Assembly (NCBI GenBank): GCA_964187785.1
Contig: OZ076409.1
Coordinates: 73,658,001-73,722,000, forward strand
Direction of reading: 5' to 3'
Length of the DNA stretch: 64,000 nt
From: Amphiscolops sp. MND2022
Lineage: Eukaryota
Part shown: in pieces, positions 949-51,572 of the stretch
Layout: the number at the start of each line of letters is the position of its first letter
Numbering within the stretch: the first letter of the stretch is position 1
Program-made: the position numbers and the translations under genes
The notes under the pieces: model-generated
Database searches by the model: none
What the model saw: only the letters and a program-made list of their open reading frames with translations
Told to the model about the DNA's origin: nothing

Positions 949-1009
949 AGGTGCCATAATCCATTGATTAGCTCAACACTTCGAGGGCGGGGTAGGGCCC
1001 CCAGCCCGA
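949..1009 (+). other. 5'-terminal double hairpin (representative copy; equivalents follow every junction)
   Basis: Hairpin 1 is TAATC-CATT-GATTA (957-970). Hairpin 2 is TCGAGGGCGGGG-TAGGG-CCCCCAGCCCGA (981-1009). Confidence 0.8.
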
Positions 1010-26100: not shown

Positions 26101-29100
26101 AAAACTCATCGGAATGCGTTCAATCCCTCCCAGAGCGGTTTAATTCTAGCTATATAGTGCAGCAACGCCATTCAAGGTCATTTGACTCATTTCTATAGGT
26201 TTTGACTCTGTCTTATCCATCCGAAAATTCGAAACAGTTAAGTACATTCCATCTCCCCTCCGTGGGAGATGGTAATGTACTCGCAAAAAGCCAAGTACTA
26301 CCGCCCTATTCTACCCGTAGTGGTGCTAGAAATGCAGTAGCGTGAGCTCCAGGTTGTTTGCAGTAGCCTTTACGTATGTTGTGATTATGTATTACAATTC
26401 TAACTCTGTTACTAAACATTAAAAAATTGTTTCAATCCCAAATTTTTTTCAACCTTAGTATGTCACCAATAAAGATATATCCATCCATTTACTACTACCT
26501 ACCCCATCACCCGCCCCCTCCACTATCTGTTCAACCGTACACGTCTAGGTGCCCAGCTTTGACCAGCAACCCAACTCTTTGAGGGCGGGGTAGGGCCCCC
26601 AGCCCGAACATAAGGCTTTAGACTTTCAACTTAAGGCCATTACGTGAGATCTAGACGATCTCGAAAACGAGCCCCACGATTTGGCTGAAAATTTGCATAC
26701 GGCTTCCTCTAGCGATTCTAAGAACTATTCCCTACTGGCATTTTGCTGTGAAAACGCAGAATGTGGGTCAAAATCTTAGTTTTTTGGTCGAAAAATGGCA
26801 TTTTTTCGAAAAAATTTTTTCAAGAGCCCATATCTCGCTCCCAGATGCTCGGAGCCGGTCGCATGTGGACGTCGATATTGCTAGGCACTTCGTAAGGAGT
26901 CCGTAGACAAATTTTCGTACGGATCGGATGAAAATTGATTGAGTTATAACAGTTTTTGAAACGCATTTTGTCGACATTTTTCGAGAACCTAGTCTATCTC
27001 TGCCGTTTTTTGCCCAGATTTTTTTCCAGGACCTCTCCTAAAGGCCTCCCCTGGCCGGTTTACATCCCAGAAAAACCATTTGGCCCTTTTGCCGCAGTTT
27101 CAGCGTTCCAGGATTCCTTGAGTAAAGTAAAATGACTTAGAATTTTTTCGAAAAATTTTCGAGAAAAAAAATTTTTTCATCAGGCCTCCCAAAGTCAAGA
27201 AACGTCCACACAACTAGTATTGCAAGTGAATGCATGTGGAAAGTGCTCGAATAGACGAGAAAAATGAGCTATTATAAACCTCTGTAGCTTAACCTGACGT
27301 TGACTTATGACAATTTTAGTGTGAGCTTGCTATGTGAGAAAAAATTTCAAAAATTGAAAATCGAAGTTATGTCTCATCCAAAACTCATCGGAATACGTTC
27401 AATCCATCCCAAAGCGGTTTATTTCCAGCTATAGAGTGCAGCAACACCGTTCAAGGTTATTTGACCCATTTTAATAGGTTTGGACTCTGTCTTATTCATC
27501 CGAAAGTTCGAAACAGTTAAGTACATTCCATCTCCCCTCGGTGGGAGATGGTAATGTACTCGCAAAAAGCCAAGTACTTACGCCCTATTCTACCCGTAGT
27601 GGTGCTAGAAATGCAGTAGCGGGAGCGCCAGGCTGTTTACAGTAGCCTTTATGGGTGTTGTGACTATGTATTACAAATCTAACTATGTTACTGAACGTGA
27701 AAAAGTTGTTTCAATCCCAAAATTTTTTTTCAACTTTAATATGTCACCAATAAACATATATCCATCTTTCCTACTACAACCACCCTACCACCCGGCCCCT
27801 CGTATCTTTGTTCAACCGTACACGTCTAGGTGCCATAATCCATTGATTAGCTCAACACTTCGAGGGCGGGGTAGGGCCCCCAGCCCGAGTCAAAAGTCGA
27901 AGACAAACAACTTAAGGCGAATGTAACAGCGAGACCCCGATTTTCTAAACTAGCCCCGCGATTTGGCTGAAATTTTGCATACGGCTTCCTATAACAATTC
28001 TAAGAACTAATTCCTACTGGCATTTTGCTGTGAAAACGCAGAATGTGGGTCAAAATCTTAGTTTTTTGGTCGAAAAATGGCGTTTTTTCGAAAAAATTTT
28101 TTTCAAGAGCCCATATCTCGCCCCCAGGTGCTCGGAGCGGGTCGCATGTGGACGTCGATATTGCTGGGCTCTTCGTAAGGAGTCCGTAGACAAATTTTCG
28201 TACAGATCGGATAAAAATTGACTGAGTAATAGCCGGAATTCTGACGAATTTTTCAGAAAATTTTGGTACAACTAGTCTATCTCTGCCGTTTTTTGCCCAG
28301 ATTTTTTTCCAGGACCTCTCCTAAAGGCCTCCCCTGGCCGGTTTACCTCCCAGAAAAACCATTTGGCCCTTTTGCCGCAGTTTCAGCGTTCCAGGATTTC
28401 TTGAGTAAAAGTAAAATGACTTAGAATTTTTTCGAAATTTTTCAAAATTTTTTTTTTCAACTTCAGGCCTCCCAAAGTCAAGAAACGTCCACACAACTAG
28501 TATTGCAAGTGAATGCACGTGGAAAGTGCTCGAAAAGACGAGAAAAATGAGCTATTATAAACCTCTGTAGCTCAACCTGACGTTGACTTATGACAATTTT
28601 AGTGTGAGCTTGCTATGTGAGAAAAAAATTCGAAAATTGAAAATCGAAGCTAAGTCGCATCCAAAACTCATCGGAATGGGTTCAATCCATCCCAAAGCGG
28701 TTTAATTCCAGCTATATAGTGCACCAACACCATTGAAGAACATTTGATCCATATATAAAAGTTTTGACACCGTCTTATCCGTTTGAAAGTTCGAAACAGT
28801 TAAGTACATTCCATCTCCCCTCCGTGGGAGATGGTAATGTACTCGCAAAAAGCCAAGTACTACCGCCCTATTCTACCCGTAGTGTTGCTAGAAATGTAGT
28901 AGCGGGAGCGCCAGGCTGTTTACAGTAGCCTTTACGGGTGTTGTGACTATGCATTACAAGTCTAACTATGTTACTGAACGTGAAAAAATTGTTTCACTCC
29001 AAAATTTTTTTTCTACTCTTTTATGTCATCAATAAAGATATATCCATCCATTTACTACTACCTACCCCATCACCCGCCCCCTCCACTATCTGTTCAACCG

Positions 29101-29866
29101 TACACGTCTAGGTGCCCAAATCCATCGATTTACCTTCACTTTGAGGGCGGGGTAGGGCCCCCGACCGGCTCCACAGGCTTTAGACTGACAACTTAAGGCG
29201 CTTTTTAGGTGTAGAGACGATCTCGAAAATGGCCCATACGATTTCGCTCAAATTTTGCATACGGCTTCCTCTAGCGATTCTAAGAACTTTTCCCTACTAC
29301 CATTTTGCCCGGAAAAATCAAAAAGTGGGTCAAAATCTTAGTTTTTTGGTCGAAAAATGGCGTTTTTTCAGAAAATTTTTTTTCAAGAGCCCATATCTCG
29401 CTCCCAGGTGCTCGGAGCGGGTCGCATGTGGACGTTGATATTGCTAGGCACTTCGTTAGGAGTCCGTAGACAAATTTTGGTTCAGATCGGATAAAAATTG
29501 ACAGAGTAATAGCCGCAAATCCGACGAATTTTTCAGAAAATTTTGGTACATCTAGTCTATCTCTGCCGTTTTTTGCCCAGATTTTTTTCCAGGACCTCTC
29601 CTAAAGGCCTCCCCTGGCCGGTTTACCTCCCAGAAAAACCATTTGGCCCTTTTGCCGCAATTTCAGCGTTCCAGAATTCCCCGAGTAAAAGTAAAATGAC
29701 TTAGAATTTTGTCAAAAAATTTTCAAAAATTTTTTTTTTTCAACTTCAGGCCTCCCAAAGTCAAGGAACTTCCACACAACTAGTATTGCAAGTGAATGCA
29801 TGTGGAAAGTGCTTGAATAGACGAGAAAAATGAGCTATTATAAAACTCTGTAGCTTAACTTGACGT

Positions 29867-29968
29867 TGACTTATGACATTTTAAGTTTAGGTAGATTTTA
29901 AATTCATATTTCTAACTTTGACTTATGACATTTTAAGTTTAGGTAGGTTTTAAATTCATATTTCTAAC
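29867..29968 (+). repeat. ~50-bp tandem duplication at the point where the long element leaves the shared left module
   Basis: TGACTTATGACATTTTAAGTTTAGGTAG(A/G)TTTTAAATTCATATTTCTAACT x2, followed by a polypyrimidine tract and CAG (29990). Confidence 0.85.
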
Positions 29969-30354
29969 TAATTGTTTTTTCTTTTTCCAGGTGTCGGAGT
30001 TCTCTTTTTCTGCAAACAGGTAGTATTTGGTAACAGGTTACGTCTGGTAAGTTTGTGGGTTGAGTAGTAAATGGTGATTATCGATCGACGGAAAGCGTGG
30101 TCGTTGATTAGGTGTTCTGCACAAAAGTAGTGGTAAAACAGGTAATCCTCGGTAAATATGCCGGCAAAGGTGAAAATGAAGTGCAACCGTGTTTCCAGTT
30201 ATACGCAATCTTTGTTTTGTGTCAAAAAATGGAGACTTTTTCTGATGATGTCTAACAGGATCAGCGTTTTTCCAGATTTGATTTGAATTGCTTTGATCTG
30301 CTTTGCCAACATTAACTTGTTTTGCTTGGCTATCAAAGAGGCTAAAAGTCCCCA

Positions 30355-33300
30355 ATGCCTCGTGGTAGAGGGAGAGGAAGGAGTGGCGGTACAGCAAGGA
30401 GGAAGTGTGCTGTGCACAATTTGTTTGTTGGAGCAGATGGTGTCTGTGGAAGGTGTGCGTCTCAGGTGGAGCAACAGCAGCAGGTGGAGAGTGATCAAGA
30501 TGATCAAACAGCCAGTAATGGCAACGTCCCTAATCCCCCAGATGCCCCCAATGGTGCTGAGAGGTCACGAGTGGAGATGTGTGACAGATGTAGTAGAACT
30601 AGCAGCGACTCTTACAGACTTGACTTACACTCTATACATAAAGACTCTACTCACACTACAATGTTCGGTCGAAATTTAAATGAAGTTAGCGGAGAAACTG
30701 TCAAGATGTGTCAGCAATGCGTCGCCTATGACGCCAACCCCTACCGACACAAGGATTGGCCCAACGCGTGGCCCAGCGTACTTTATACTTTACTTTTTGA
30801 TACTCATAGGTTTAGTTCAAACGCTGAAAAACTGTTTAAAATACTTCCACATGAAATTAGGACTTCTTACATGCAACACTTAAACAATGTTTATCCTACT
30901 CTTACTTTCAATAGTTACGATTCGGTTTTCAGGGATATAACTAGGGAAAAAGAAGACTTCTGGACTCTTATAAACAGTCGAACTGCGAAAAACTTAATCA
31001 ATGCTCTGACTAAACACTGTTTTCCTAACATAAGATGCCCAGCTGGATGCTTTGAGTTTGTCGAAAAGGCTCAAGGAATTTCTTTTGCTCATTTTCTAAA
31101 CTGGATTTACCCTCTCTTCACTAGTTTCAACGCTGATAGCAGAAAGTTTTTAAATGGAATCCGTGATGACTTTACAAAACCTTTAATACTGTTGGAGAAG
31201 TTTAAAATTTCACCTTGTCTGGTAAATAATGAAAACGGTTTGCAGTTAGTTACATGTAGCGACCACAAAAATGGTGTCAAATTGAAGTATGTTCATGTTC
31301 CAACCAACCCAGCAACAGGTAATGTTAGTACACGGTCTGCAGACAGGTTAGCTTTAATGGTGTCAAGTGTCCGAACGGTAAGACCTTTGAAAATAGGTGC
31401 TAAAAGTTGTACTTTTACAATGTGTCGCGTAGACAGTGGACGCATCAGCGGTGTGAGCAGTACTGTTCTCCACAAGTTCCGTAATTTTGAGACTCCCCCT
31501 ACAGATCGTTTGGTTGAAATCGAAAAACTCATGATTAACTGTAGAAATGATGTCAAAGATATTATAAGACAATGCTGTGGAAACTTTGAAATAAGTAAGG
31601 GTTTAGCCGAGTATTTTCTTGCTGTGGAGTCACCTGTAAGTATTTCTACCATTGAAGAAAATTGTAAAAGTGCTGTCGTGTTTGACATGGAATCATTGAT
31701 GAGAATGAAAGACTACGTGGAAAGTTGTCCTGAAGATGTGACCAATCGGGACCTTGGTTTGGCACCATTGCTTTTAGGACATAAACTCGACGGCTACGGA
31801 TGTGAGCCTCAGTCTATCGCAAAGATAATTGCCCAGAATTCAGATTTGTTTCCATTTGTTTACGTATTCATCAGTCAGGATTTGCTTTTGTCTAAACTTT
31901 TGAAATTGAGTTCGGGAAATGATCAATTACAACTCCTTTGCAAAACACTCTATAAACTTCGATCAAATTTTTGCAATCGTTTCCAATCCCAAATCCAGTC
32001 AGTATTCCGTAGTTTCCAGGAAGTTTTCACTGCAATTTTTCCAACTGGCTCGATTCCTTTGAGCAACATAGTTGAGACTTTAGAAAACTGTAGCGTTAAA
32101 ACATGTCAACGAGGTGAGGTGACAAACGTTAGCATTGACTGTTCGAGGTATGACACACTTCTCTTTGTGGCCACAGGTTCCAACACACGTGATTTGCAAG
32201 TGCCCTTTGAATTGACTTCAACTAATGGAACAACTTTTTATTTAACTTTTGTTAGTTCTGACTCAACTTTAAGTCTCAGGTATGGTCCTCCGTTCTATGG
32301 ATTCTGGACTGTTAAAAATGACGGAAGTAGACCTGTAAAAGATCCAACTTTAGAGTACCAGTACAACAGGAACTGGAAATACTTGTTATATGTATCTAAA
32401 AGTGACTTGAACGAGGAAACTAAATTACGATTCTTGAAATATATGGGAGGACAAGGTGTCTTTTTTTGTCAAGAACATGTAAAACCGTTATCAACTGATT
32501 ACTTAAACAGCAATAGAAAATGTAGCATGCCCAAAAATACCGGTGTTTCACAAATTTGTACGCGAAAATCTGCTTGGCGGTGTCCGGAAAATGACTGTTT
32601 TGCGTCCGTTTGTAAGACTCATTTCCGAGAATTTTGCGACACGAACGACCGAGTTAACGTTGATAATGCTCCCTCTACTGATGCCATCCAAGATAGCAGC
32701 GATGAAGAAACAGAGTTGCCAATGGACGTCGATGAAGAACCAGATGTCAATCAACCTGGACCCAGCTTTGTACTGGATAACCCTCAACGATCCCAAGAAG
32801 AACAAGAGGCCAACATGGACGAGTTTGATTGTCCGCAATTGATAGTTGATGCCGGATTTCAAGATACGGATGCGTTTGCGACGGACGCTGGCTGTGAGCC
32901 CGTTTATCTTTCGAACGACTCTAAATTTGTTCCAATGCATGTACTTTTAAACGGCGAATGCCAACTGATGAAGCGTTTAAGGTACCCTAAGCATATAGGT
33001 AAAAGATTCCAACGCTACTTCCAGAACTTCGTTTCAACTTTGCCTGGCAAGTCGATACCTTTGCTTCAACCAGAAGCTTGTTTGTTTCCAAGCATTTTTT
33101 ATAAACAGCTAGAGGATGGCTCTTTTCCTGGGGCTCTGCCCTTTTTTCTCTACGACGATAAAAAAGCAAATTCAAAATTGGACTACGACGGTCTGCATGA
33201 ACATTTGCGGGTGAGACTTAAAGACGCGACTCTTTTAACTTCAGCTAATTTGTCTTACATTATGTACGCGTTCGACAGTGTTTTGAATTTATCGTTGACA

Positions 33301-36300
33301 AAATGCCACACCAACCAGTTCTTCAAACGTGGCTTACAGACAATCTCCATTGGTAAGTATAAACCGCGGCAACTGACATCAACGGAATCTGTACTTAAAA
33401 TGGATAGTGTAGACAGTGACGTGCATGTAAATAGGTTAGGTACTGCCTGTGCTTCCGAAACACCCGATCTTTTTGTAACGTTCACATGTAATCAAAAAGA
33501 ACACCCTGGAGTTGCCGAAGTTGTTCAGGCAATTTATGAATTGTACGGCAGTGCTCCAGTCGAAGAACTAAAAGACGTGCTCCAAGCATACATGGTGATT
33601 ATCGTAAGATGCTGGACCAGGACGATCGAATTGCTAATTGATTACTTAAGGTTTTCTGATGAACATATTTTGGGTGAAATTTTGAAGGTTTGGGGTAGGG
33701 CTGAGTTCCAGAGTGCCGCAGCGAATTTACAACACTACCACATACTGTTTTGGTTGAAGAATCTTGTAGAAGATGTTTTGGAGAAAATTGCCTGTGCTCA
33801 CAAACATGTGTTTCACGAGTTCAAAAAACTTTTTCATGTCAATTTTGGTACCGTTGATAGCGCTGAACACGCAGGTGAGTTGTTTGACAAATGTGTTCGC
33901 GTGCAAACTCACGACTGTGAGAAAGGTCACTGCTTGAAAAAGGTAAGGTTTGATGGAGAAAGAAAATGTCGTTTTCCACCGTACCCGCAGAGTCATGAAC
34001 CATGGTATAAGGAGTTTCACCAGCCGCATTCAAAAGAAGCCTTGGAAGCCCTACAGGAAATTGGGTTGGCCGAACCGCGGCCTGGTTTTTTCAATGAATT
34101 GCAGGTAACCTCTGTTTTGAAGGCAGGTAAATACATGTACGCTGCTCAGAGGGGTGAGCACATGTCTCCTTTGAATGTTGCCTTGTGGAGCATCTGCAAG
34201 TCGAGTTTGAATGTTCTAAAAGTTTGCAAATCAGTGGCCTCCCGGTATTTAACATCATATGCCGCGGGAAAGGAAGAGCATGCTGACGTTTCAATTAACC
34301 CTGATAATGCTCACAATGTCCTAAATGTGCAAGTCCAAAAAATTGAAAACAAAAAGTTAGGTGGTGTTCGGAAAATTCTTGCTCGAGAGGCTAAACAGGA
34401 AAAAACTCAAGGTATTATTGATTCTACTACGATTGCAAGTACAGAATGTGTGTCGTGGATGTTACAACTTCCTACGGTAATAACAACAATGGATTTTGTT
34501 TCGGTTCCTACAGTGTCGCTTGAAAACCGCGGCGGTGTACTTTTAAAACGAAAAAACAACACTCAGTCGAGAGCTAATGTACCCGGTGTAGCAAATGAAG
34601 GTCCTGCGGAAATTAGACAACATCATCTGCATTTTCCCCGTCATAGACTTTTCACAGGTGGACAAAAAATTGTTATAGAAAGTGTGAATAAAACTCCTTT
34701 TAGCACTGATAAAGTAACTGTTTTCTCTTTACGTCCTCCAGAATTGCTGTTTGTGAATAAATTGAAATTGTATTACAGGTGGTTCGTTAGAGAAAAATTA
34801 CCCGGTAAAAAAGAAACAATCTGTGTTAGGTTTTTGAAAAATGATGTTAAAGATTCAACCTGGGTGGATGGTGAAAATTATGCCATTCGATTGAGACCTT
34901 GCGCTGTTGGTGAATTTTCAAACTATGTTCAGGAATGTTTACTTACAACTCCAGCCGATGACAGACTTAATGACGCTTGGCGTGTGATCACTGAAGTTTT
35001 GAATGTTGCTTCACACCAAAATCGTTCTTTTTTCGTTTCTGCAGACCCCAATTTGTCAAACACTCCCGCTGAAGTTGTGTTTTCTAAAGTTTATCCTCGA
35101 AGCCCGGCGAACTTTTTGATTCACTTTTTGCTTTCAAATGCTTGTTTTGAAACAGAACTAGAACTTTTTGACGTGCCAACACTAAAAGATGCTTATATCA
35201 AAGGTAAAATTGTTCCCGACAAACAGGTTTTTGACACTGATGATTGCAATGAACTTTTGAAAAAGTACGTTTTGGAACAGCTTCGATACCTACCAGGTGG
35301 CACCAGATCTTTTGATGGTAACGTATTGGCTGCAAAATCTGCATTTAAAGGAATGTTGATAGATAACGACATCTACAACGAAGGTCTTCCCATAACGACA
35401 ATGGATACTTTGACTGAAGCATTAGAAGACAAAGCGAAAAAAATGCTTCGACAGTCCCAAGTAAACATAATAAAGTCGTTGACTCAAAAAAATTTACCAA
35501 GTTTTCCGTCTTCAGCTGACTTTGAAACAGTTACGAAAGAAACACCTTCGAATTGGTCAGCTGAATTGATAGCTAATGTTTTTCAATCCGCTGAGTCGCT
35601 ACAAGAACAGTCGTTAATTTTAGAAACTCTAAAAAATTTGATTACTGACATTTTGTTTTCAGGTCACAAGTTTAATAAACATCAGCTAATTTTAGGTCCC
35701 CCCGGCACTGGTAAGACTTACGTGTTAACAATGGCTTTAGGTTTTGCTCTGTCGAAAGGTTTGTTTTGTCTTGTGACAAGTCTTGCATCAAGAAGATCGA
35801 TGCACTTTGGCGGTGAACATATACATAAACTGTTTTGTTTGCCCCCGTGTTCGAAAGGCTCGCCAATCAAAATGGCTGAGCAGGCACTGACAAAACTGGA
35901 TCACAGAAATGACAAGAAGATGCTCCTCCTGGCTTTGGAAGTGCTGTTCGTGGAAGAGGTAAGCTTGATAAGCGCCGAACAGTGGTCTGCTATGGACATT
36001 ACACTTCAGGAGTTGAAGCAGTCAACTTTGCCTTTCGGTGGCGTTCTGGTAATTGCGAGTGGAGATCAGATGCAACTACCCTCCATCGACGGCAATGACA
36101 TCTTCCTTAGTCCCGTTCTGTTGACAAACTTTGCGTTGTTTTTTCTCGGACATTTCGTTCGGATGACTGATCAAGCTGGTCAAACTGTGCTTCGTCACAT
36201 GTGGAAGCGTCCGATTAATCCTGCCGCTGTCGCTGAAATTCTGGCCATTTTGGATGCCAAGTGTACGTTTAAAGACAGTTGGGCGGATCTCCGCGACCAA

Positions 36301-37482
36301 TGTGTCATGCGTGTTTTCGGAAAGCGGAAAGCCGAGCAAAGGGAGTTCGATAGTCACATTGAGCGAGTACGCGGCTCCGGAAATCCGTTTAAGATCTTTG
36401 AAGCTACGGACGAAATTTGTCTTAGTAAAAGCTCTGTTTGGAACGTAACCGAATCAACTCAGGTAAGTAACCACTTGAACGATAAGGTGAATGAGCCGAA
36501 AAAGTTGATAGTTTACAAGAAAGCTCTTGTGAGGGTAACCGTCAATTTGGAAAGCGAGCAGTTGTCTCAAGGTCAGGTAGGTGTAGTCCACGAGGTTCCC
36601 ACCGGTGACTCGGTCACGGTGTACATCCCTGACACCAGTGGTGGAGAAGTTGACATCACTCAGGCGATGCTGGACAACGAGGAGTACCTAAACTGGCGCT
36701 CAGTCACCCTTACGAGACACACAGGGTTTGTGCAGCCGTTCAGGAAGAATTCGATTCGCAGAACGCAGTTTCCTTTGATGAATAACGTTGCGATGACCGT
36801 GCACAAACTAATGGGTGACACGTTCGACAAGCTGGCTACGTCTATCTCGGCAACCGACAGCAGCTATGCCTTGTGGATGACGTCTCAAGTTTTCGTAATT
36901 GTGAGTCGCGTGAAGCAACTGAAAAATCTCACGTTTGTCGGAAACAAGTCAGCTACGTTGGACGCAATAAGATTGATTTTTGAAACTAGGGACTTGCGAG
37001 AAGAGCGTCTTTTCAGGTTGTTAGATCAAATTCGGAACAATTCAAGATCTGGTTCCATTGTTCAACCAATCGATGTTACACAGATGTCCTATGTCCCGTT
37101 CAACAAAAACATTCCGCGATCTCCAACTGGTTTCGTGTATCTTTTGACAAGCCTAAACCCAACATCGCCCGAAACTTTTTACGTTGGCCAAACAGAGCGC
37201 GCCTTGTTGACACGTTTGTCTGAGCATAATTGTGGAAACGGCTCGGAATTTACAAAACCGCCGCACCGGTTGCCTTGGGCCGTCGCTGCATTCATATGCA
37301 ATTTTGACTCGAAATTTTCTCGCCGTGATCTCGAACAAGAACTTCATCGAGAAATGTATGTACGCCGCAATCGTTTGAAAACCCTGAATGACATGATCGC
37401 CCTTTTCCAAGAGAAAGTTTCAGATTTGAACTGCGGCCTTCATTTTTGCGTGTGCGGTGAGTATCGGGCTACTTCAAGTTGA
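30355..37482 (+). CDS. Helitron-type RepHel transposase: N-terminal Cys/His clusters, HUH (Y2) Rep, PIF1-family SF1B helicase, C-terminal GIY-YIG nuclease (2375 aa)
   Basis: Rep motif 1 PDLFVTFTCN (33463-33492), motif 2 WGRAEFQ...QHYHILFW (33691-33753), motif 3 RYLTSYAAGK (34243-34272). Helicase motifs: Walker A GPPGTGKT (35695-35718), Walker B LFVEEVS, PFGGVLVIASGDQMQLP, RTQFPLMNNVAMTVHKLMGDT, FVIVSRVK. C-terminus GFVYLL...FYVGQTE...RLSEHN.G.GSEFTK...LPW. Confidence 0.92.
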   Translation: MPRGRGRGRSGGTARRKCAVHNLFVGADGVCGRCASQVEQQQQVESDQDDQTASNGNVPNPPDAPNGAERSRVEMCDRCSRTSSDSYRLDLHSIHKDSTHTTMFGRNLNEVSGETVKMCQQCVAYDANPYRHKDWPNAWPSVLYTLLFDTHRFSSNAEKLFKILPHEIRTSYMQHLNNVYPTLTFNSYDSVFRDITREKEDFWTLINSRTAKNLINALTKHCFPNIRCPAGCFEFVEKAQGISFAHFLNWIYPLFTSFNADSRKFLNGIRDDFTKPLILLEKFKISPCLVNNENGLQLVTCSDHKNGVKLKYVHVPTNPATGNVSTRSADRLALMVSSVRTVRPLKIGAKSCTFTMCRVDSGRISGVSSTVLHKFRNFETPPTDRLVEIEKLMINCRNDVKDIIRQCCGNFEISKGLAEYFLAVESPVSISTIEENCKSAVVFDMESLMRMKDYVESCPEDVTNRDLGLAPLLLGHKLDGYGCEPQSIAKIIAQNSDLFPFVYVFISQDLLLSKLLKLSSGNDQLQLLCKTLYKLRSNFCNRFQSQIQSVFRSFQEVFTAIFPTGSIPLSNIVETLENCSVKTCQRGEVTNVSIDCSRYDTLLFVATGSNTRDLQVPFELTSTNGTTFYLTFVSSDSTLSLRYGPPFYGFWTVKNDGSRPVKDPTLEYQYNRNWKYLLYVSKSDLNEETKLRFLKYMGGQGVFFCQEHVKPLSTDYLNSNRKCSMPKNTGVSQICTRKSAWRCPENDCFASVCKTHFREFCDTNDRVNVDNAPSTDAIQDSSDEETELPMDVDEEPDVNQPGPSFVLDNPQRSQEEQEANMDEFDCPQLIVDAGFQDTDAFATDAGCEPVYLSNDSKFVPMHVLLNGECQLMKRLRYPKHIGKRFQRYFQNFVSTLPGKSIPLLQPEACLFPSIFYKQLEDGSFPGALPFFLYDDKKANSKLDYDGLHEHLRVRLKDATLLTSANLSYIMYAFDSVLNLSLTKCHTNQFFKRGLQTISIGKYKPRQLTSTESVLKMDSVDSDVHVNRLGTACASETPDLFVTFTCNQKEHPGVAEVVQAIYELYGSAPVEELKDVLQAYMVIIVRCWTRTIELLIDYLRFSDEHILGEILKVWGRAEFQSAAANLQHYHILFWLKNLVEDVLEKIACAHKHVFHEFKKLFHVNFGTVDSAEHAGELFDKCVRVQTHDCEKGHCLKKVRFDGERKCRFPPYPQSHEPWYKEFHQPHSKEALEALQEIGLAEPRPGFFNELQVTSVLKAGKYMYAAQRGEHMSPLNVALWSICKSSLNVLKVCKSVASRYLTSYAAGKEEHADVSINPDNAHNVLNVQVQKIENKKLGGVRKILAREAKQEKTQGIIDSTTIASTECVSWMLQLPTVITTMDFVSVPTVSLENRGGVLLKRKNNTQSRANVPGVANEGPAEIRQHHLHFPRHRLFTGGQKIVIESVNKTPFSTDKVTVFSLRPPELLFVNKLKLYYRWFVREKLPGKKETICVRFLKNDVKDSTWVDGENYAIRLRPCAVGEFSNYVQECLLTTPADDRLNDAWRVITEVLNVASHQNRSFFVSADPNLSNTPAEVVFSKVYPRSPANFLIHFLLSNACFETELELFDVPTLKDAYIKGKIVPDKQVFDTDDCNELLKKYVLEQLRYLPGGTRSFDGNVLAAKSAFKGMLIDNDIYNEGLPITTMDTLTEALEDKAKKMLRQSQVNIIKSLTQKNLPSFPSSADFETVTKETPSNWSAELIANVFQSAESLQEQSLILETLKNLITDILFSGHKFNKHQLILGPPGTGKTYVLTMALGFALSKGLFCLVTSLASRRSMHFGGEHIHKLFCLPPCSKGSPIKMAEQALTKLDHRNDKKMLLLALEVLFVEEVSLISAEQWSAMDITLQELKQSTLPFGGVLVIASGDQMQLPSIDGNDIFLSPVLLTNFALFFLGHFVRMTDQAGQTVLRHMWKRPINPAAVAEILAILDAKCTFKDSWADLRDQCVMRVFGKRKAEQREFDSHIERVRGSGNPFKIFEATDEICLSKSSVWNVTESTQVSNHLNDKVNEPKKLIVYKKALVRVTVNLESEQLSQGQVGVVHEVPTGDSVTVYIPDTSGGEVDITQAMLDNEEYLNWRSVTLTRHTGFVQPFRKNSIRRTQFPLMNNVAMTVHKLMGDTFDKLATSISATDSSYALWMTSQVFVIVSRVKQLKNLTFVGNKSATLDAIRLIFETRDLREERLFRLLDQIRNNSRSGSIVQPIDVTQMSYVPFNKNIPRSPTGFVYLLTSLNPTSPETFYVGQTERALLTRLSEHNCGNGSEFTKPPHRLPWAVAAFICNFDSKFSRRDLEQELHREMYVRRNRLKTLNDMIALFQEKVSDLNCGLHFCVCGEYRATSS
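37129..37380 (+). other. GIY-YIG nuclease domain (SLX1/UPF0213-like) at the RepHel C-terminus
   Basis: GFVYLL (GIY), FYVGQT (YIG), conserved R in LLTRLSEHN, G.GS.FT and PW motifs typical of SLX1-like GIY-YIGs, and a candidate catalytic E in RRDLEQEL. Confidence 0.82.
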
Positions 37483-37672
37483 ACATCGTAAAAGCTAAAA
37501 AGTAGGGGAAGCACATAGTTCTACTCTGATAGTGAACGTGTGTTGTTCTCCACATTAGGTTTTAAAACAACATGTAATTTTGTGTAAAAATGTAAAAGTA
37601 GGCACTGTAGGATATCGCACAAAGTTCTACTACACAGGGTGGACACCGTGCGATACTCTGTTTGTTCACTGT

Positions 37673-37815
37673 AGGTTAGTTTGCTGGAATCGACGGAGAG
37701 CGTGGTTCCAGGTAGGTTTATATTAGGTTAGTTAGCTGGAATCGACGATGAGCGTGGTTCCAGGTAGGTTTAAATTAGGTTGGTTTGCTGGAATCGACGA
37801 TGAGCGTGGTTCCGG
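37673..37815 (+). repeat. 52-bp tandem repeat (x3), each copy holding a CTGGAATCGACG-N5-CGTGGTTCC(A/G)G hairpin
   Basis: Hairpins at 37684-37711, 37736-37763 and 37788-37815. Confidence 0.85.
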
Positions 37816-38499
37816 AAATGCTCAATCAGAATAAAAAAATTCATTTAGGTTTTGAAACATCATGTAGCTTCGAGGTATGTTGCCCTTTTGAGCCATCTGC
37901 CTCTTAAAACTAGAACTTGAAGTAACCTTCATTCTATTTTTCAAGTGTATCCTTGTGTGTTGCCCTTTTGAGCCATCCGCAATGATACACTTCTTTTTTT
38001 GGAAAATGGAGGTTAACCTGGTAAAAATGACAGCGATCCAGTTGAAGAAGAAGACGATGAAGAACGATGTCGCGGACAGCAGACGATGGTGCAGCTGAAG
38101 CAGAGCAGATGATGACGATCTAGAAGCAAGACCCCAGTGTAAAAGCTTGTGTAGCCCTTTTGAGCCTTCCAAGCTTATACACTAAATATAAAAATGAAAG
38201 TCTTAACAAATATAACCAGTGTGGCAGCACGTGTAGCCCTTCTGAGCCTTCCGTGCTGAGACACTCTCCTTAATAAAAATAGGTCGAGAAATTCTAAAAT
38301 CGGAATTATTAGACCAAAACATGACTTCCCTAAAACTGACTTTTTTCTACTTCGGACTTTTTGACTAAAAGACTCCAAGACTGAGACTTAATTGACTTTT
38401 TTCTAAAACCTAACCGTCCTTTTTCCTTACGTAGTGAGAATGAGTGGAGTTGATGATTGAGACGTTTTTGGATACATTCAAACTAGTGTTTATACCAGA

Positions 38500-38980
38500 G
38501 CGTCCAGATGAAGAAGAAAGAAGATTCGGAAGATGAGAATAATTAATATGTATAATAGTAATAATTATAGTAGTTGCGTCCAGATGAAGAAGAAAGAAGA
38601 TTCGGAAGATGAGAGTAATTGATATTTATAATAGTAATATTTATAGTCGGTGCGTCCAGATGAAGAAGAAAGAAGATTCGGAAGTAGAGAATAAATAATA
38701 TTTATAATAGTAATATTTATAGTAGGTGCGTCCAGATGAAGAAGAAAGAAGATTCGGAAGTAGAGAATAAATAATATTTATAATAGTAATATTTATAGTA
38801 GCTGCGTCCAGATGAAGAAGAAAGAAGATTCGGAAGATGAGAGTAATTGATATTTATAATAGTAATATTTATAGTAGGTGCGTCCAGATGAAGAAGAAAG
38901 AAGATTCGGAAGTAGAGAATAAATAATATTTATAATAGTAATATTTATAGTAGGTGCGTCCAGATGAAGAAGAAAGAAGA
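38500..38980 (+). repeat. 76-bp minisatellite (6 full + 1 partial copy)
   Basis: GCGTCCAGATGAAGAAGAAAGAAGATTCGGAAG followed by an AT-rich part; copies start at 38500, 38576, 38652, 38728, 38804, 38880 and 38956. Confidence 0.95.
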
Positions 38981-39172
38981 AAAGAAGACGGTCCAGAACA
39001 CGGAAAGAAGATTTGGGAAAAGATTATAATAACTCTGACATGTTTTTGTACTTCACTTTTTTGAAAGGTTGTAGGTTCAGAATAGGCTGTAGTGATTAGG
39101 TTGTATAAATTTCATTGTTCGGCATGATATGCAAATCACTGGGAGCCCTAACCGATAGTCCTCGTTTTGTAG

Positions 39173-39832
39173 ATGACAATGAACAGCCCAAGCGTCGTAA
39201 TTATTGGAGCAAGTAACCTGGTGTCGAAGAAGAAAGAGCCCCTTGAAGCCTGTAACTGTTTGACTCCCGAATGCACGAGAAAAGACGAACACCTTACGAA
39301 CCTGCCAGAGAATTCAACATTTCAAATTTTTGCTCAACCAGGGGCTAAAATAAACCATCCGAATGAAGTCAAGTCTGCCGAAACCTTGTTCAAAAAAGCT
39401 CTAGCACTCAGGCCCAAGACCATCGTTTTTTACATGGATATTATAATGAATTCCTTGACTAGTCCTCCCTGGTTGCCAAATTTACCTGTTTTGAGTCCAC
39501 AAGAAGTTCTACGAAAATTGTTTGTTTTTGAAAGAAAAGCTAACGCCCAAGATATTAAGTTTGTTGTTGTTTTATGTAGGCGAAGGAAAGAGGATAAGCT
39601 AAAACTGCAACCTGGAACGTCACGTCAGCCTGGAGATGCACCCTTACCATTTGACTCCGATTCAACTCTTGACAATGAAATGAATACCTTACTGAAAGAA
39701 AATTTTTTTTACTATAGTGATTTAAAACTCTCCAATGCAGCCTTCAAGATCAACGATTCAGCTCATCAGACTCAACTTTCACTCAATTTGTCCCTTGGGA
39801 AAATTATTCGTTTTTTTAATAAGGACACCTAA
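39173..39832 (+). CDS. SGNH/GDSL hydrolase-like protein (219 aa)
   Basis: Block I-like VVIIGASNL, block II-like AQPGAKI, block III-like IVFYMDIIMNSL and block V-like DSAH (DxxH) in the expected order. The ATG directly follows an acceptor-like CTAAC...TTTTGTAG. Confidence 0.6.
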   Translation: MTMNSPSVVIIGASNLVSKKKEPLEACNCLTPECTRKDEHLTNLPENSTFQIFAQPGAKINHPNEVKSAETLFKKALALRPKTIVFYMDIIMNSLTSPPWLPNLPVLSPQEVLRKLFVFERKANAQDIKFVVVLCRRRKEDKLKLQPGTSRQPGDAPLPFDSDSTLDNEMNTLLKENFFYYSDLKLSNAAFKINDSAHQTQLSLNLSLGKIIRFFNKDT

Positions 39833-40054
39833 TTCACTTGCTCTGTCAGTTTAAGCGCTTTAGCGTCTTAAACTGACCCCTTTTCCTCTCTCTTTTCTTC
39901 TTTTCCGCCTTTTTCTTTTTAATAGGGTTCTGGCGACGTGGAAGAGAAGGAGAGGAAACCTGGCCTGCTTGCAGGATTGCCAGCTGTCTTCGAGGAAATT
40001 GTTGTGCCTGTCTACGTCCTTGCCGCAACTTGGACCCGAAGCAGCTGTCTCACA

Positions 40055-40345
40055 AATCAAAAACAAAGAAATTCCAAAAAAAATCATAAAACTTCAAAAA
40101 AACCCCAAAAAAAAACAAAAAAACCCATAAAAACCAAAAAAAAAACTTAAAACAAAAATATAACCAAAACCCCAAAAAAACAAAAACTCAATTCAGAGAA
40201 ATGCACAAACAAACGAAAAACCAGAAAACCTTAAGACAAAACTCGGAAACATATCTTACCAAAAGTGAAATCTCAAAAATCCTAAAACCTTGAAAAGTAG
40301 AGCAAAACTTTCCAAAAAATCCTTACAACTTAAAAACTATAAAAC
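40055..40345 (+). repeat. A/C-rich low-complexity tract between ORF2 and ORF3
   Basis: Runs such as AAAAAAACCCCAAAAAAAAACAAAAAAACCC with almost no G. Confidence 0.8.
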
Positions 40346-40917
40346 TTTCTTGTTTTCCAACTTTTTTCTTTTGCACTCTGTCTAAAGAGAATATTAACAC
40401 TTTTAGTCTTTATGTAACGATTCCAATTTTATTTGTGAAGTAAATACTGTCAATTAAAATTTTTTCGTTAAAAAGTCTTTTGACATAAAAAAAACAATTT
40501 TCGAGTATTTTTTCCTTGGAATCCTACTTTCTAAAATTCACATGTTTGCTTAAGCTTCTTCATACCCTGCATTTTCTTTACTGTTTGAGGATTCCACTAT
40601 AAATTTTTTTTGCCCATTCCGAACTCAGCAGATACATGTCCTAATTTTCATTGAAGTTTGCCTTTGGTTCAATGCCTTTTGTTTTTTAAGCTCCTTCAAA
40701 ACTCTCAAATACATGCGAAAAAATGTTTTTAGTAGAAAAAAAATGAAAAAAATCCTAACGAGATGTCCCCTGGAGAAGATTCCAGCACTGTTTGTGTATC
40801 AACAGTTCGGTAATGGGTCTACAATGAAATTTAGGTTAACCTCCATTTTGTATTCGTATGGTCTTTTACTCTTGGAATGTGAAAACTGAAATTTTTGGTT
40901 GCTTTTCCAGATTCAAA

Positions 40918-41991
40918 ATGCCCGGTTTCTTGAAGGCAAATCTAAGCGAAGCCCAGGCTCAAAGTCTCCTGTGTAGGTTTACTCAAAGTTCAGTCGACGA
41001 GATAACCAGCGGCGAACCCTCGTCTCGACTGTATAGACTGTCTGCCGTGCTGTTATATGTAACACAGCCGACAAGAAAGATTTCATTCAATAAACAAACC
41101 AAGAATTTTGGGTCTCGCAAAATGGAGGTGGACAAATACCACCGGTTTGTGGTATTTGGTATCCCAGGTACAACAACTATAGTGGCGATGTTTTCGCCCA
41201 ATAGCGAAGAGTCGCGTCGACTCTTCAGGTACAACATCGGACCGGGTAGCCATGTTCAAATATTGAAACCGACCTTGGAAGGTCAACTGTCCAGAGGTGG
41301 CAGTTGCCTCATTTCAACTAAGGAGCCGTTGGTACCCTCCATCGAGCCTAACGATGACATTACTTTACCGCCCTACGACGTGGAAGGAAGTTGTATCGAA
41401 TTCCGGTACTTCAGTTTTGTCACGAAAAATTTATTGGTCGACAGTGCGGTGATTGCGGAGAGTGTGTGCCCAGGTAAGCTTTGCGACGGGCAAACTTACC
41501 ACGAAAATTGCCCCTGTCTGGAAACATCACAGACAAAAATTTGGAACTTATTGTTCGACTTGAAATGCCCAGAAATGAGCAATAATCACTCCGAGATAAT
41601 AAGCTTTTATTCAAACGAGACAACGGGGTACTTCGTGACGCCAGCGACACGAAAATTGAAGGGCGATTCCGACCGAATAGACAGGTTCGATCTGGATAAT
41701 TCTGTACAACTGTTGGTGCAATCTGTCAATGAAACGTGTGGATTCAGAGTCTCCGGCTGGTTCAAACCAGCGATTGATGAAGAGGGGACAACGCTTGAAC
41801 ATAAAAATTTTCACGTCTGCTCATTGAAACCTGAAAGTCCTTTAACGTCTGAACAGGAAGGACTGAAATACAGCACCGAAACGACGTCAACTGGTGCTTC
41901 AGCTGTTACAGCCGAAACAGGCTCAGATCCAACTCCGAGTTCAAATGCAACTGCACCTCCGGACTTGACTGCGGCCCCGGATACACAATGA
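40918..41991 (+). CDS. Uncharacterised ~357-aa protein, possibly a tandem OB-fold ssDNA-binding protein with a Cys cluster and a low-complexity S/T/P/A tail
   Basis: Long open frame. The ORF track starts at 40858, but the ATG at 40918 follows the acceptor TTTTCCAG (40910) and is the likelier start. The pattern is beta-rich (LYRLSAVLLYV, RFVVFG, IVAMFS, IGPGSHVQILKP) and includes CPGKLCDGQTYHENCPC. The fold is inferred. Confidence 0.6.
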   Translation: MPGFLKANLSEAQAQSLLCRFTQSSVDEITSGEPSSRLYRLSAVLLYVTQPTRKISFNKQTKNFGSRKMEVDKYHRFVVFGIPGTTTIVAMFSPNSEESRRLFRYNIGPGSHVQILKPTLEGQLSRGGSCLISTKEPLVPSIEPNDDITLPPYDVEGSCIEFRYFSFVTKNLLVDSAVIAESVCPGKLCDGQTYHENCPCLETSQTKIWNLLFDLKCPEMSNNHSEIISFYSNETTGYFVTPATRKLKGDSDRIDRFDLDNSVQLLVQSVNETCGFRVSGWFKPAIDEEGTTLEHKNFHVCSLKPESPLTSEQEGLKYSTETTSTGASAVTAETGSDPTPSSNATAPPDLTAAPDTQ

Positions 41992-42220
41992 TCGCCTGGA
42001 TACACTACAATACTTTAGCGCTGTTGCGGTTGAGTGGCTTGTCGCCCTTTTGAGCCGTCAGTCACTCTCCGCAATTGAACTTAAAAATTTGATTTTGTTT
42101 ATGGTAAAATAATTACCATTTTGTTTGAAATAAAAGCAAAGAAGTAAGCCTTTTTTGGGAACAACTAAAACTAATTGATTGTTTTAATCCCACAGGTTTT
42201 TTTCACTCAATTGTCTTCAG

Positions 42221-42328
42221 GTACTTTTTTTCAACGGGCATCTCTATCCCTAAGGTAATTAAGTAGATTTAAATTAAGTACTTTTTTTCAACGGGCATCT
42301 ATATTCTTAAGGTAATTAAGTAGATTCT
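42221..42328 (+). repeat. ~58-bp direct duplication near the right end of the long element
   Basis: GTACTTTTTTT(T)CAACGGGCATCT.TAT.C.TAAGGTAATTAAGTAGATT x2. Confidence 0.85.
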
Positions 42329-45300
42329 AAAATTTGAAGACATGTACTCTGATTACATCAGCCTCATTAGGTGGAATCGACGATAAGCGTGGTTCCACTT
42401 TTCTTTTTTTGAAATCAAGTATAATAATGTAACGACAACCCTTCCGCATTCTCTAACATCATTAACCACTCATTAACCTTTCAACCGACACCCGACTGAC
42501 GACTCTTCTCCAATCACGTAAGTAACTACTTTCATATTTTTAACACTCTCCTGCCTACTGGAATCTTCGTTTTGCCGTCCACGTCTAGGTGCCCAAATCC
42601 ATCGATTTACCTTCACTTTGAGGGCGGGGTAGGGCCCCCGACCGGCTCCTCAGGCTTTAGACTGGCAACTTTAAGCCATTGTGCAAAATGAAAGCGATTT
42701 TCTAAACGGCCCATACGATTTGGCTGAAATTTTGCATACGGCTTCCTCTAGCAATTCTAAGAACTAATCCCTACTGGCGTTTTGCCCGGAAAAATCAAAA
42801 AGTTGGTCAAAATCACTATTTTAGGTGCCGAAAATGGCGTTTTTTCGAAAAATTTTTTTTCAAGAGCCCATATCTCGCTTCCAGGTGCTCGTAGCGGGTC
42901 GCATGTGGACGTTGATATTGCTAGGCACTTCGTAAGGAGTCCGTATACAAATTTTCGTTCCGATCGGATAAAAATTGACTGAGTAATAGCCGCAAATCGG
43001 ACGAATTTTTCCGGAAATTTTGGTGCAACTAGTCTATCTCTGCCGTTTTTTGCCCAGATTTTTTTCCAGGACCTCTCCTAAAGACCTCCCCTGGCCGGTT
43101 TAGCCCCCAAAAAAACCATTTGGCCCTTTTGCCGCAGTTTCAGCGTTCCAGGATTCCCCGGGTAAAAGTAAAATGTCTTAGAATTTTTTCGAAAAATTTT
43201 CAAAAATTTTTTTTTTCAACTTCAGGCCTCCCAAAGTCATAGAACTTCCACACAACTAGTATTGCAAGTGAATGCATGTGGAAAGTGCTTGAATAGACGA
43301 GAAAAATGAGCTATTATAAACCTCTGTAGCTTAACCTGACGTTGACTTAAGACAATTTTAGTGTGAGCTTCCTATGTGAGAAAAAATTTCAAAAATTGAA
43401 AATCGAAGCTAAGCCTCATCCAAAACTCATCGGAATACGTTCAATCCATCCCAAAGCGGTTTGTTCCCAGTTGTAGAGTGCAGCAACACCATTCAAGGTC
43501 ATTTGGCCCACTTTAATAGGTTTTGACTTTGTCTTATCCATCCGAAAATTCGAAACAGTTAAGTACATTCCATCTCCCCTCCGTGGGAGATGGTAATGTA
43601 CTCGCAAAAAGCCAAGTACTACCGCCCTATTCTACCCGTAGTGGTGCTAGAAATGCAGTAGCGTGAGCTCCAGGTTGTTTGCAGTAGCCTTTACGTATGT
43701 TGTGATTATGTATTACAATTCTAACTCTGTTACTAAACATTAAAAAATTGTTTCAATCCCAAATTTTTTTCAACCTTAGTATGTCACCAATAAAGATATA
43801 TCCATCTTTCCTACTACAACCACCCTACCACCCGGCCCCTCGTATCTTTGTTCAACCGTACACGTCTAGGTGCCCCGCTTTGACCAGCAACCCAACTCTT
43901 TGAGGGCGGGGTAGGGCCCCCAGCCCGAACATAAGGCTTTAGACTTTCAACTTAAGGCGGATGCTACAGTCTGATATCGATCTCGAGAACTAGCCCCGCG
44001 ATTTGGCTGAAATTTTGCATACGGCTTCCTATAACAATTCTAAGAACTAATCCCTACTGGCATTTTGCTGTGAAAACGCAGAATGTTGGTCAAAATCTTA
44101 GTTTTAGGGTCAAAAAATGGCGTTTTTTCGGAAAATTTTTTTTCAAGAGCCGATATCTCGCCCCACAGGCCCCGAATCAAAAAGTGTACAATTGTTCGTT
44201 TGTTAGGCACTTCATGAACTGTCCGTAAACAAATTTTCGTACAGATCGGATAAAAATTGACTGAGTAATAGTCGCAAATCCGACGAATTTTTTCGAAATT
44301 TTTGGTGCACCTAGTCTATCTCTGCCGTTTTTTGCCCAGATTTTTTTCCAGGACCTCTCCTAAAGGCCTCCCCTGGCCGGTTTACCTCCCAGAAAAACCA
44401 TTTGGCCCTTTTGCCGCAGTTTCAGCGTTCCAGGATTCCCCGGGTAAAAGTAAAATGTCTTAGAATTTTTTCGAAAAATTTTCAAAATTTTTTTTTTCAA
44501 CTTCAGGCCTCCCAAAGTCAAGAAACGTCCACACAACTAGTATTGCAAGTGAATGCATGTGGAAAGTGCTCGAATAGACGAGAAAAATGAGCTATTATAA
44601 ACCTCTGTAGCTCAACCTGACGTTGACTTATGACAATTTTAGTGTGAGCTTGCTATATGGTAAAAAATTTCAAAAATTGAAAATCGAAGCTAAGTCTCAT
44701 CCAAAACTCATCGGAATACGTTCAATCCATCCCAAAGCGGTGTAATTCCAGCTATGTAGTGCAGCAACGCCATTCAAGGTCTTTTGACCCATTTATATAA
44801 GTTTTGACACCGTCTTATCCATCCGAAAGTTCGAAACAGTTAAGTACATTCCATCTCCCCTCCGTGGGAGATGGTAATGTACTCGCAAAAAGCCAAGTAT
44901 CACCGTCCTATTCTACCCGTAGTTGTGCTATAAATGCAGTAGCGGGAGCGCCAGGCTGTCTACAGTAGCCTTACGGGTGTTGTGACTATGTATTACAAAT
45001 CTAACTATGTTACTGAACGTGAAAAAATTGTTTCACTCCAAAATTTTTTTCAACTATTCTATGTCATCAATAAAGATATATCCATCCATTTACTACTACC
45101 TACCCCATCACCCGCCCCCTCCACTATCTGTTCAACCGTACACGTCTAGGTGCCCAAATCCATCGATTTACCTTCACTTTGAGGGCGGGGTAGGGCCCCC
45201 GACCGGCTCCTCAGGCTTTAGACTGGCAACTTTAAGCCATTGTGCAAAATGAAAGCGATTTTCTAAACGGCCCATACGATTTGGCTGAAATTTTGCATAC

Positions 45301-51300: not shown

Positions 51301-51572
51301 ACTCGCAAAAAGCCAAGTACTTACGCCCTATTCTACCCGTAGTGGTGCTAGAAATGCAGTAGCGGGAGCGCCAGGCTGTTTACAGTAGCCTTTATGGGTG
51401 TTGTGACTATGTATTACAAATCTAACTATGTTACTGAACGTGAAAAAGTTGTTTCAATTCCAAAATTTTTTTTCAACTTTAATATGTCACCAATAAACAT
51501 ATATCCATCTTTCCTACTACAACCACCCTACCACCCGGCCCCTCGTATCTTTGTTCAACCGTACACGTCTAG

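Follow-up and report, generated by a model that had tools for sequence, protein, structure and literature searches.

We analysed a 64,000-nucleotide stretch of the genome of Amphiscolops sp. MND2022 (contig OZ076409.1, positions 73,658,001 to 73,722,000, forward strand; hereafter the window), and found in it an autonomous Helitron-like element whose large protein joins a HUH Rep transposase and a PIF1 helicase (RepHel) to a C-terminal GIY-YIG nuclease domain. Judged from the letters alone, the RepHel-GIY-YIG protein is real, intact and under selection, and it is the hallmark of a divergent Helitron-like clade and no oddity of the window copy. This clade is barely described so far and may bring its own tools for finishing insertion. 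The frame is open without stops over 2,378 codons (30346-37482, + strand) with its first ATG at 30355, and Pfam orders the domains as a Helitron Rep piece, PIF1 and GIY-YIG. The initial annotation of this DNA had seen a GIY-YIG motif set in frame after the helicase, which is borne out by the single open frame and a Pfam match above cut-off. The element and the parts of its main open reading frame (ORF) are as follows; in junctions the slash separates the end of one unit from the start of the next.

29112..42588, + strand: whole autonomous element, 13,477 bp, from 5′ GTG to 3′ CTAG, bounded by two CTAG/GTG array junctions
30355..37482, + strand: RepHel-GIY-YIG ORF (P0001; ORF call and Pfam), residues numbered from 30346
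30574..31599, + strand: Cys/His-rich N-terminal domain, conserved in the clade (alignment A1 and loci)
33433..34332, + strand: HUH Y2 Rep; motif 1 at 33466-33495, HUH at 33724-33753, YxxxY at 34243-34269
35668..36987, + strand: PIF1-like superfamily 1B (SF1B) helicase; Walker A at 35695-35718, Walker B at 35950-35964, motif VI at 36895-36915
37129..37479, + strand: predicted SLX1-type GIY-YIG domain; Y2265 (37138), Y2279 (37180), R2290 (37213), H2294 (37225), E2330 (37333)

A predicted SLX1-type nuclease closes the RepHel protein

The GIY-YIG family PF01541 was matched at residues 2262-2333 (nt 37129-37344) with 23.9 bits in the whole protein (cut-off 22.6), and with 29.0 bits (E 1.3e-6) in the last 140 amino acids alone. 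The domain start given by the initial annotation, 37129, is exactly its GFVY strand. A single-sequence search with the domain matched SLX1 and UPF0213 structures weakly (E 0.05-0.3), while a profile of 18 family C-terminal domains placed HIGLE/SLX1 first (E 6.7e-10 to 4.9e-7) and UPF0213 at E 8e-4. When the AlphaFold model of the domain (predicted local distance difference test, pLDDT, 82.5) was compared with known structures, SLX1/HIGLE made up eight of the eight Foldseek matches at E≤0.001. VIA-align scored SLX1/HIGLE at Z 11.3, 10.2 and 9.7, with the next row at 6.2 and I-TevI, UvrC and T4 EndoII at only 3.3-4.0. A homing endonuclease is ruled out by these fold scores.

Residues Y2265, Y2279, R2290, H2294 and E2330 align with Y14, Y26, R36, H40 and E79 of Cg-Slx1, and we take the tyrosines and the histidine to be functional residues of the active site. 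R36 and E79 are active-site residues of Cg-Slx1 (PMC4407285). P0001 ends 48 residues past E2330 and, unlike fungal and animal SLX1, has no RING match in Pfam. The SLX1 likeness that had been proposed agrees with profile, fold and active-site residues. With an SLX1-type fold in the model and a predicted Y/Y/R/H/E active site, we regard the identity of an SLX1-type nuclease fused to RepHel as secure, with high confidence. SLX1 cuts Holliday junctions, flaps and splayed arms and leaves duplex and single-stranded DNA uncut, and Cg-Slx1 is inactive on duplex, nicked and gapped DNA (PMC4407285).

The transposase parts of P0001 are also well preserved. Helitron_like_N (PF14214) was matched above cut-off at residues 1037-1134 (E 1.8e-9) and PIF1 at residues 1781-1914 (E 4.7e-11). 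Rep motifs 1-3 and the two tyrosines are present, with H1130, H1132, Y1301 and Y1305 invariant in 27 rows; the helicase has EEVS as its Walker B, with two glutamates that hardly vary across the clade. A second Cys/His-rich region conserved in the clade lies at 32416-32655. From their residues, this region and the N-terminal domain at 30574-31599 are probably metal-binding; the N-terminal domain had no match in Pfam, NCBIfam, PHROGs or Atlas.

The fusion recurs throughout a large clade

With P0001 residues 1700-2378 as the query, we retrieved 32 proteins, 31 of the clade and one HLE2 protein (P0033). The clade profile detects GIY-YIG in 26 of the 31, a count that is partly circular, the profile having been built from 27 of these sequences. 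Two of the five domain-less proteins (P0022 and P0024) stop exactly at the site of a predicted GT-AG intron of L001 and L002 (L001:3890-3976 and L002:7892-7976), which lies between helicase motif VI and GIY-YIG and whose removal restores the frame. A less biased sample consisted of 24 loci picked by helicase-derived patterns, 20 of which reach the helicase end. GIY-YIG is present in all 20, in the same ORF in 18 and across the predicted GT-AG intron in 2, and the Y-Y-R-H set is kept in 15 of them and lost in 5.

A profile search with the domain over 1.84 billion representatives (50% identity) gave 3,260 matches at E≤0.001, and the best 150 of the 3,260 were inspected. Among these 150, the clade helicase is found in 68 of 68 with at least 100 amino acids upstream and in 15 of 29 with 50-99 amino acids upstream, the other 53 being too short to judge; Rep and helicase are both visible in 16. 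Perkinsus olseni KAF4651874.1 has Rep, PIF1 and GIY-YIG (31% identity over 1,711 amino acids) and P. marinus has a helicase piece of the clade. No relative was found in the viral contigs searched. Three further architectures were seen: in P0238 the GIY-YIG domain is followed by a Ulp1-type protease, an N-terminal OTU domain is present in several members of a nuclease-dead subclade (P0016, P0019, P0020, L005), and in P0175 a family GIY-YIG lies behind a phage-type primase/helicase piece (PHROGs E 1.2e-9), as a real fusion or a chimera.

The Y-Y-R-H set is intact in 38 of 59 helicase-selected rows, and in a helicase tree of 58 clade rows an intact site occurs in every deep branch; the N and P(W) positions are retained in 59 of 60 rows. 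The ratio of nonsynonymous to synonymous substitution rates (dN/dS) of the GIY-YIG domain is 0.09-0.12 in four pairs, next to 0.085-0.091 for the helicase (the pair L008/L009 is saturated). These comparisons show GIY-YIG to be the ancestral C-terminal domain of a large divergent RepHel clade, dispersed copies included. A chance read-through or a captured SLX1 fragment is ruled out, the domain being conserved, selected and ancestral. The fusion idea of the initial annotation is right in that the fusion is real, and needs correction in that it is an ancestral clade state and not a rare acquisition by an ordinary Helitron. The Rep-PIF1-GIY-YIG architecture is widespread in the clade and is not confined to tandem arrays, since the dispersed copies L012 and L016 have the domain intact.

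How the clade compares with HLE1 and HLE2

The published Rep motif 2 of HLE1 and HLE2 is ExQxRG(S/L)(P/L)HxH (PMC4067079). The clade motif is ExQ-x(3-5)-GN-x-[PSQ]HxH, with AN in the subgroup of the window copy, and neither ExQxRGLPHxH (HLE1) nor ExQxRGSPHxH (HLE2) occurs in the clade Rep. DUF6570 is absent from P0001 and six other clade proteins, while the control P0033 has it, and Pfam finds no C-terminal apurinic (AP) endonuclease in P0001. The clade Rep profile barely detects Helraiser (E 6.3). On one HLE2 and one HLE1 sequence, the clade profiles score 123 versus 22 bits for the helicase and 29 versus 8 bits for Rep. In a Rep and helicase tree, 39 clade rows are set apart by a long branch (support 0.998) from one HLE1 (L025) and one HLE2 (P0033) sequence. 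L025:3093-8123 is itself an intact canonical HLE1 RepHel on a contig binned with a giant-virus genome, and may be host DNA.

At the ends, 3′ CTAG or CTGG was found in 12 of 12 elements, in line with the CTRR of HLE1. The 5′ TC and the A^T insertion of HLE1 were not found: the window copy starts with GTG (or TG), and L012 and L016 start with TT (or GTT). The hairpin that HLE1 has some 11 nt from its 3′ end was likewise not seen: the autonomous copy, L007 and L012 lack any perfect stem of at least 7 bp in their final 350 nt, and in the non-coding units the stems lie 43-57 or about 270 nt away from the end. Asymmetric terminal inverted repeats occur in 0 of the 12 elements, the first 25 and last 80 nt having been compared for exact matches of 6 nt or matches of 10 nt allowing one mismatch. 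With a HUH Rep and a PIF1 helicase recognised in one ORF, the clade is assigned to the Helitron superfamily.

The element shares its ends with the surrounding array

The element lies within a head-to-tail array, and the following parts bear on its ends.

1..29111, + strand: array of non-coding units, head-to-tail, upstream part (972-1,389 bp)
29112..29880, + strand: 5′ arm common to the element and the non-coding units, up to 91% identity, a mosaic of unit subtypes
29144..29168, + strand: 5′ hairpin, putative Rep origin or recognition site, with the conserved core GGGKAGGGHCCY at 29150-29161
42575..42588, + strand: element 3′ end, CCGTCCACGTCTAG, with 13 of 14 bases the same as the end of the main unit family
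42589..64000, + strand: array of non-coding units, head-to-tail, downstream part (1,271-1,406 bp)

The window is almost entirely a repeat of about 1.3 kb. Its 40 junctions (38 CTAG/GTG, one CTAG/GAG and one CTGG/GTG) delimit 39 whole units, namely 38 non-coding units of 972-1,406 bp and the 13,477-bp unit with the ORF. Twenty-nine units belong to one family and nine to six further families, whose best outside-family match is 63-73%; family switches all fall at a junction, and families this unlike are interleaved in exact register. CTAGGT on the + strand lies at unit boundaries in 38 of 38 cases; since the junction is defined by the motif, this match is backed by unit lengths and family switches and by no independent method. 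The 655 other + strand CTNG sites in the window have no visible insertion. Near-identical units (99.8-100%; those at 4489/42589/45150, 22693/46431 and 8355/9643/17450) have unlike neighbours, which fits entry unit by unit, and mosaic units and one duplicated pair (951/3206) indicate that unequal exchange acts too.

The hairpin core has 37 matches to a strict pattern in the window, all on the + strand, versus 0.05 expected, and with a loose pattern it lies 37-47 nt past 38 of 38 CTAG/GTG junctions. On other contigs it occurs once each in 6 of 26 loci, always at an element 5′ end: upstream of RepHel in L002, L012, L014, L015 and L016, and in L007 just past the 3′ end, which reads CTAG/GTGG and then the core. 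The stems vary in sequence and keep their pairing (z -0.4 to -4.5, the autonomous copy of the window being weak at -0.4). The end structure of 29112-42588 is also found in L007, L002, L012 and L016, and a 49-nt stretch of the element 5′ arm is 78% identical to the same position in the L002 5′ arm. We placed the element cut at CTAG^GTG; the true cut is possibly 1-2 bases further right. One element of 11.7-11.9 kb is present twice, as L012 and L016, which are 96-99% identical and lie amid different host genes. Their left flanks end in CTCG and CTGG and both elements end in CTGG, which suggests that the target resembles the element's own end, as in IS91 (n=2); CTNG(T) at both ends fits target mimicry or a short duplication alike.

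Taken together, the array consists of non-autonomous partners of the element that share its 5′ hairpin core and CTRG 3′ end, and we infer that their mobility is driven by this RepHel. Other features of the units were observed. Five divergent unit families (ends 9642, 17449, 52861, 59403 and 63238) have a perfect 20-nt palindrome 43-57 nt before CTAG, with a compensatory change in one family and no palindrome in the main family. A second stem about 270 nt from the unit end is common to four families, and the 972-bp unit 2234-3205 has an internal deletion with both ends kept.

A model for the role of the nuclease

Domains, residues, selection, ends and array structure were all read from sequence, and we modelled the cycle on Helraiser, IS91 and SLX1 biochemistry. 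In the proposed cycle, Rep would nick the + strand at CTRG^ beside the 5′ hairpin, the helicase would displace the nicked strand and the OB-fold protein of the element (ORF2, below) would coat that strand; another nick, at the following CTRG^, would free a circle that Rep would join to a CTNG target. The junction where two resident copies meet would be the best copy of Rep's own substrate, and new units would enter there. On the basis of SLX1 biochemistry, the GIY-YIG domain would bind the branched strand-transfer intermediate and cut either a flap or the target strand opposite, allowing the insertion to be copied and fixed; it would act as an efficiency factor, with no absolute need for it. 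We lean slightly towards this explanation as a whole, that is, an intact autonomous Helitron-like element with an SLX1-type nuclease that processes a branched insertion intermediate; the proposed role of the nuclease taken by itself has about an even chance of being correct. Of the three roles that had been suggested for the nuclease (cutting the second strand, resolving branched intermediates or conferring junction specificity), processing of branched intermediates appears to fit best.

An unlikely alternative is that the GIY-YIG domain opens the target by nicking intact duplex, which would give Rep a single-stranded or 3′-OH target. The catalytic set is conserved, other GIY-YIG enzymes nick duplex DNA, and target opening is the usual guess for the Helentron AP endonuclease and the known role of the Penelope GIY-YIG. 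The domain also holds the same position as that AP endonuclease (PMC4067079). However, its closest structures are all structure-selective SLX1/HIGLE enzymes (Z 9.7-11.3, versus 3.3-4.0 for I-TevI, UvrC and T4 EndoII), and Cg-Slx1 leaves duplex, nicked and gapped DNA uncut (PMC4407285).

We give a distinctly low probability to the view that the domain is mainly a non-catalytic module that binds branched DNA or has a structural role, with cutting incidental or supplied by the host SLX1-SLX4. Catalytic residues are lost in at least four places of the tree with the domain kept, and the N and P(W) positions persist as described above; but the five catalytic positions are retained together across branches whose helicases are 25-35% identical, which is hard to explain without catalysis.

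Lower still we rate a role in junction specificity, in which the nuclease would recognise or nick CTAG/GTG and so build arrays. The domain is intact in the window copy and in L007, which both sit at head-to-tail junctions, and the family switches of the array all fall at a junction. This role, also raised by the initial annotation, did not hold up: the nuclease is intact in L012 and L016, each of which is inserted singly between host genes, and Rep by itself can account for target mimicry, just as IS91 chooses its tetranucleotide target with its HUH enzyme (PMC13181058). Maize Helitrons unlike one another inserted exactly head-to-tail, with no such domain described in the accessible text (PMC2267711), and these insertions and the intact dispersed copies disfavour an array-building role.

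That the array is an ordinary satellite shaped by unequal exchange, on which a transposon merely landed and which says nothing on mechanism, is very improbable. In its favour, the units combine head, middle and tail types in mosaic fashion, some neighbours are duplicated as pairs, and on the left the change to unique sequence falls 770 bp into a unit and carries a 52-bp duplication. Against it, the right end of the element is exactly on a junction with 13 of 14 bases as in unit ends, unlike families are interleaved in exact register, and the hairpin core and CTAG/GTG junction recur at autonomous ends on unrelated contigs.

Several points weigh against an SLX1-type nuclease that processes the insertion intermediate of a separate clade. 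Catalytic residues are lost in a 19-row subclade (support 96) and in P0015, P0026 and P0030, many catalytically decayed members are still full-length, multi-copy ORFs, and the decayed domain of L001/L002 is under purifying selection (dN/dS 0.109), which fits a binding role. The same fold does not settle the substrate, and nuclease activity is a prediction from sequence and model; which strand is transposed, and where within G-G-T the cut falls, are likewise proposals. The target preference is based on two dispersed insertions, and the window copy may have acquired its 5′ arm, which is mosaic for unit subtypes, by exchange with the array. The placement of the clade rests on one HLE1 and one HLE2 reference, with which a deep HLE2 offshoot and a separate clade look alike in the tree. 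Helraiser transposes in cells without such a domain (PMC5876387). This activity and the dead subclade disfavour a strict need for the nuclease, and a strictly essential role is not supported by the sequences of the 19 rows.

Other genes and repeats of the element

The remaining features of the element are listed below.

29863..29966, + strand: 52-bp tandem duplication, where unit-like sequence changes to unique sequence
37672..37813, + strand: 52-bp repeat, 2.7 copies, containing an imperfect hairpin
38500..38980, + strand: 76-bp minisatellite, 6.3 copies, inside the element
39173..39832, + strand: 219-amino-acid ORF with no assigned family
40918..41991, + strand: ORF2, oligonucleotide/oligosaccharide-binding (OB)-fold protein with a Cys cluster (clade homologues, fold matches)

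Of 24 loci, 9 have an ORF2 homologue downstream of RepHel; its orientation varies. ORF2 had no sequence-level match in PDB or Pfam. Its model is modest (pLDDT 64); VIA-align matched it to MCM10 (Z 10.5) and RPA (Z 9.1), Foldseek to LEF-3/RPA (E about 4e-4), and its Atlas neighbours are POT1, CTC1 and MEIOB (0.91-0.94, at a low recognition score). By its modelled fold, ORF2 is probably an RPA-like single-stranded-DNA-binding protein. RPA-like genes are known Helitron accessories (PMC11417382). The loci contain no relative of the ORF at 39173-39832, which also matched no family in searches that included Pfam, PHROGs and Atlas; a likeness of this ORF to SGNH hydrolases is no more than an impression, without support.

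The imperfect hairpin motif (ATCGACG...GCGTGGT) occurs five times in the element: at 30084 (degenerate), three times in the repeat at 37685-37813, and at 42372-42396. The motif GCCCTTYTGAGCC occurs five times in the window (37882, 37962, 38154, 38236 and 42044), and the copy near 42030 is similar to a stretch near the start of L005. No tRNA (ARAGORN, GCCCTTYTGAGCC copies included) and no Rfam match were found. Both the ORF, with its nuclease region, and the unit are covered by contigs from a DNA run and a metatranscriptome, which contain relatives only (shares 0.05-0.06); such cover is no proof of transcription, and the gap in cover across most of 38220-42368 is uninformative.

Significance and comparison with known systems

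Integration is listed among the open questions on Helitrons, and how the Helitron strand gets fixed in a duplex target is an open step (PMC5876387). This fixation step becomes testable with an intact element whose ends are defined, whose target motif is short, which encodes a predicted branch-specific nuclease and which has natural relatives with a dead nuclease. With 3,260 profile matches the clade is large, and it is missing from the classifications examined, so it has probably been missed or misfiled in annotation. The array illustrates how mixed, kilobase-unit satellites can originate from transposon ends. A broader reading, which we put forward tentatively and think more doubtful than the cycle above, is that the clade is a separate ancient rolling-circle lineage with a full integration kit (HUH Rep, helicase, SLX1-like resolvase and RPA-like protein) that targets its own circle junction, several families building satellite-like arrays unit by unit at CTAG^GTG. 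If true, transposons could turn into satellite DNA through the action of an enzyme, at a target that is short and defined.

The initial annotation took the fusion for an undescribed architecture, which mostly stands, as no description of the fusion clade was found. In the accessible literature on Helitrons and GIY-YIG, with Repbase and subscription journals outside the search, the only link is a passing mention by HELIANO of HelenSM92, a Helitron-like HLE2 family of Sphagnum magellanicum reported with a GIY-YIG domain (PMC11417382). HelenSM92 differs in its short terminal inverted repeats and TT insertion sites, and its GIY-YIG is called a capture in one family; the accessible text does not give the position of the domain, and the accessible paper and supplement text, including Table S11, has no other mention of GIY-YIG (PMC11417382).

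The third clade of Paramecium Helitrons is similar in lying outside HLE1 and HLE2 and in its very long ORFs, target specificity and many non-autonomous derivatives, and different in being telomere-targeted, with right terminal sequences (RTS) ending in CCAA after a stem-loop (PMC13085455). The ORFs of Hel01 and Hel15 stop, as read by eye, about 85 codons after helicase motif VI, versus 188 in P0001, and so end too soon after the helicase to hold a GIY-YIG domain; the string "GIY" does not occur in the accessible main text (PMC13085455). Proto-Helentron-Pi of Phytophthora shares a 5′ TT, a 3′ CTAG, a 5′ stem-loop and a length of about 14 kb (L012 and L016 read TT...CTGG), but as described it inserts at A^T, has the HLE2 Rep signature and DUF6570, and has no C-terminal nuclease.

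SLX1 and At-HIGLE share the fold and the active-site residues (PMC4407285, PMC9071465). They differ in that the domain is here fused to a transposase, with no RING and no stand-alone gene. No SLX4 partner is known for RepHel-GIY-YIG. IS91 resembles the clade in HUH rolling-circle transposition, in a target tetranucleotide that resembles its own cleavage site (targets CTTG, GTTC and CTCG; cleaved at CTCG), in origin-end palindromes and in the lack of target duplication (PMC13181058), and differs in being prokaryotic, with neither helicase nor GIY-YIG in the accessible description.

The canonical Helitron (HLE1; Helraiser, PDB 7LCC) shares the HUH Y2 Rep, PIF1 and the 3′ CTRR, but Helraiser is barely found by the clade Rep profile. 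Head-to-tail Helitron junctions or arrays are reported in maize, bat and plant centromeres (PMC5876387, PMC5148889, PMC2267711). From the Helentrons (HLE2), the clade is set apart by its GIY-YIG nuclease in place of an AP endonuclease, its Rep motif 2, its CTRG ends, and its lack of DUF6570 and of asymmetric inverted repeats (12 of 12 elements). It resembles them in scoring above HLE1 with the clade profiles (one reference each), in a separate RPA-like gene, in an OTU domain in some members and in non-autonomous partners, and in a single ORF that holds Rep and PIF1, the helicase being followed by a fused nuclease (PMC4067079, PMC11417382).

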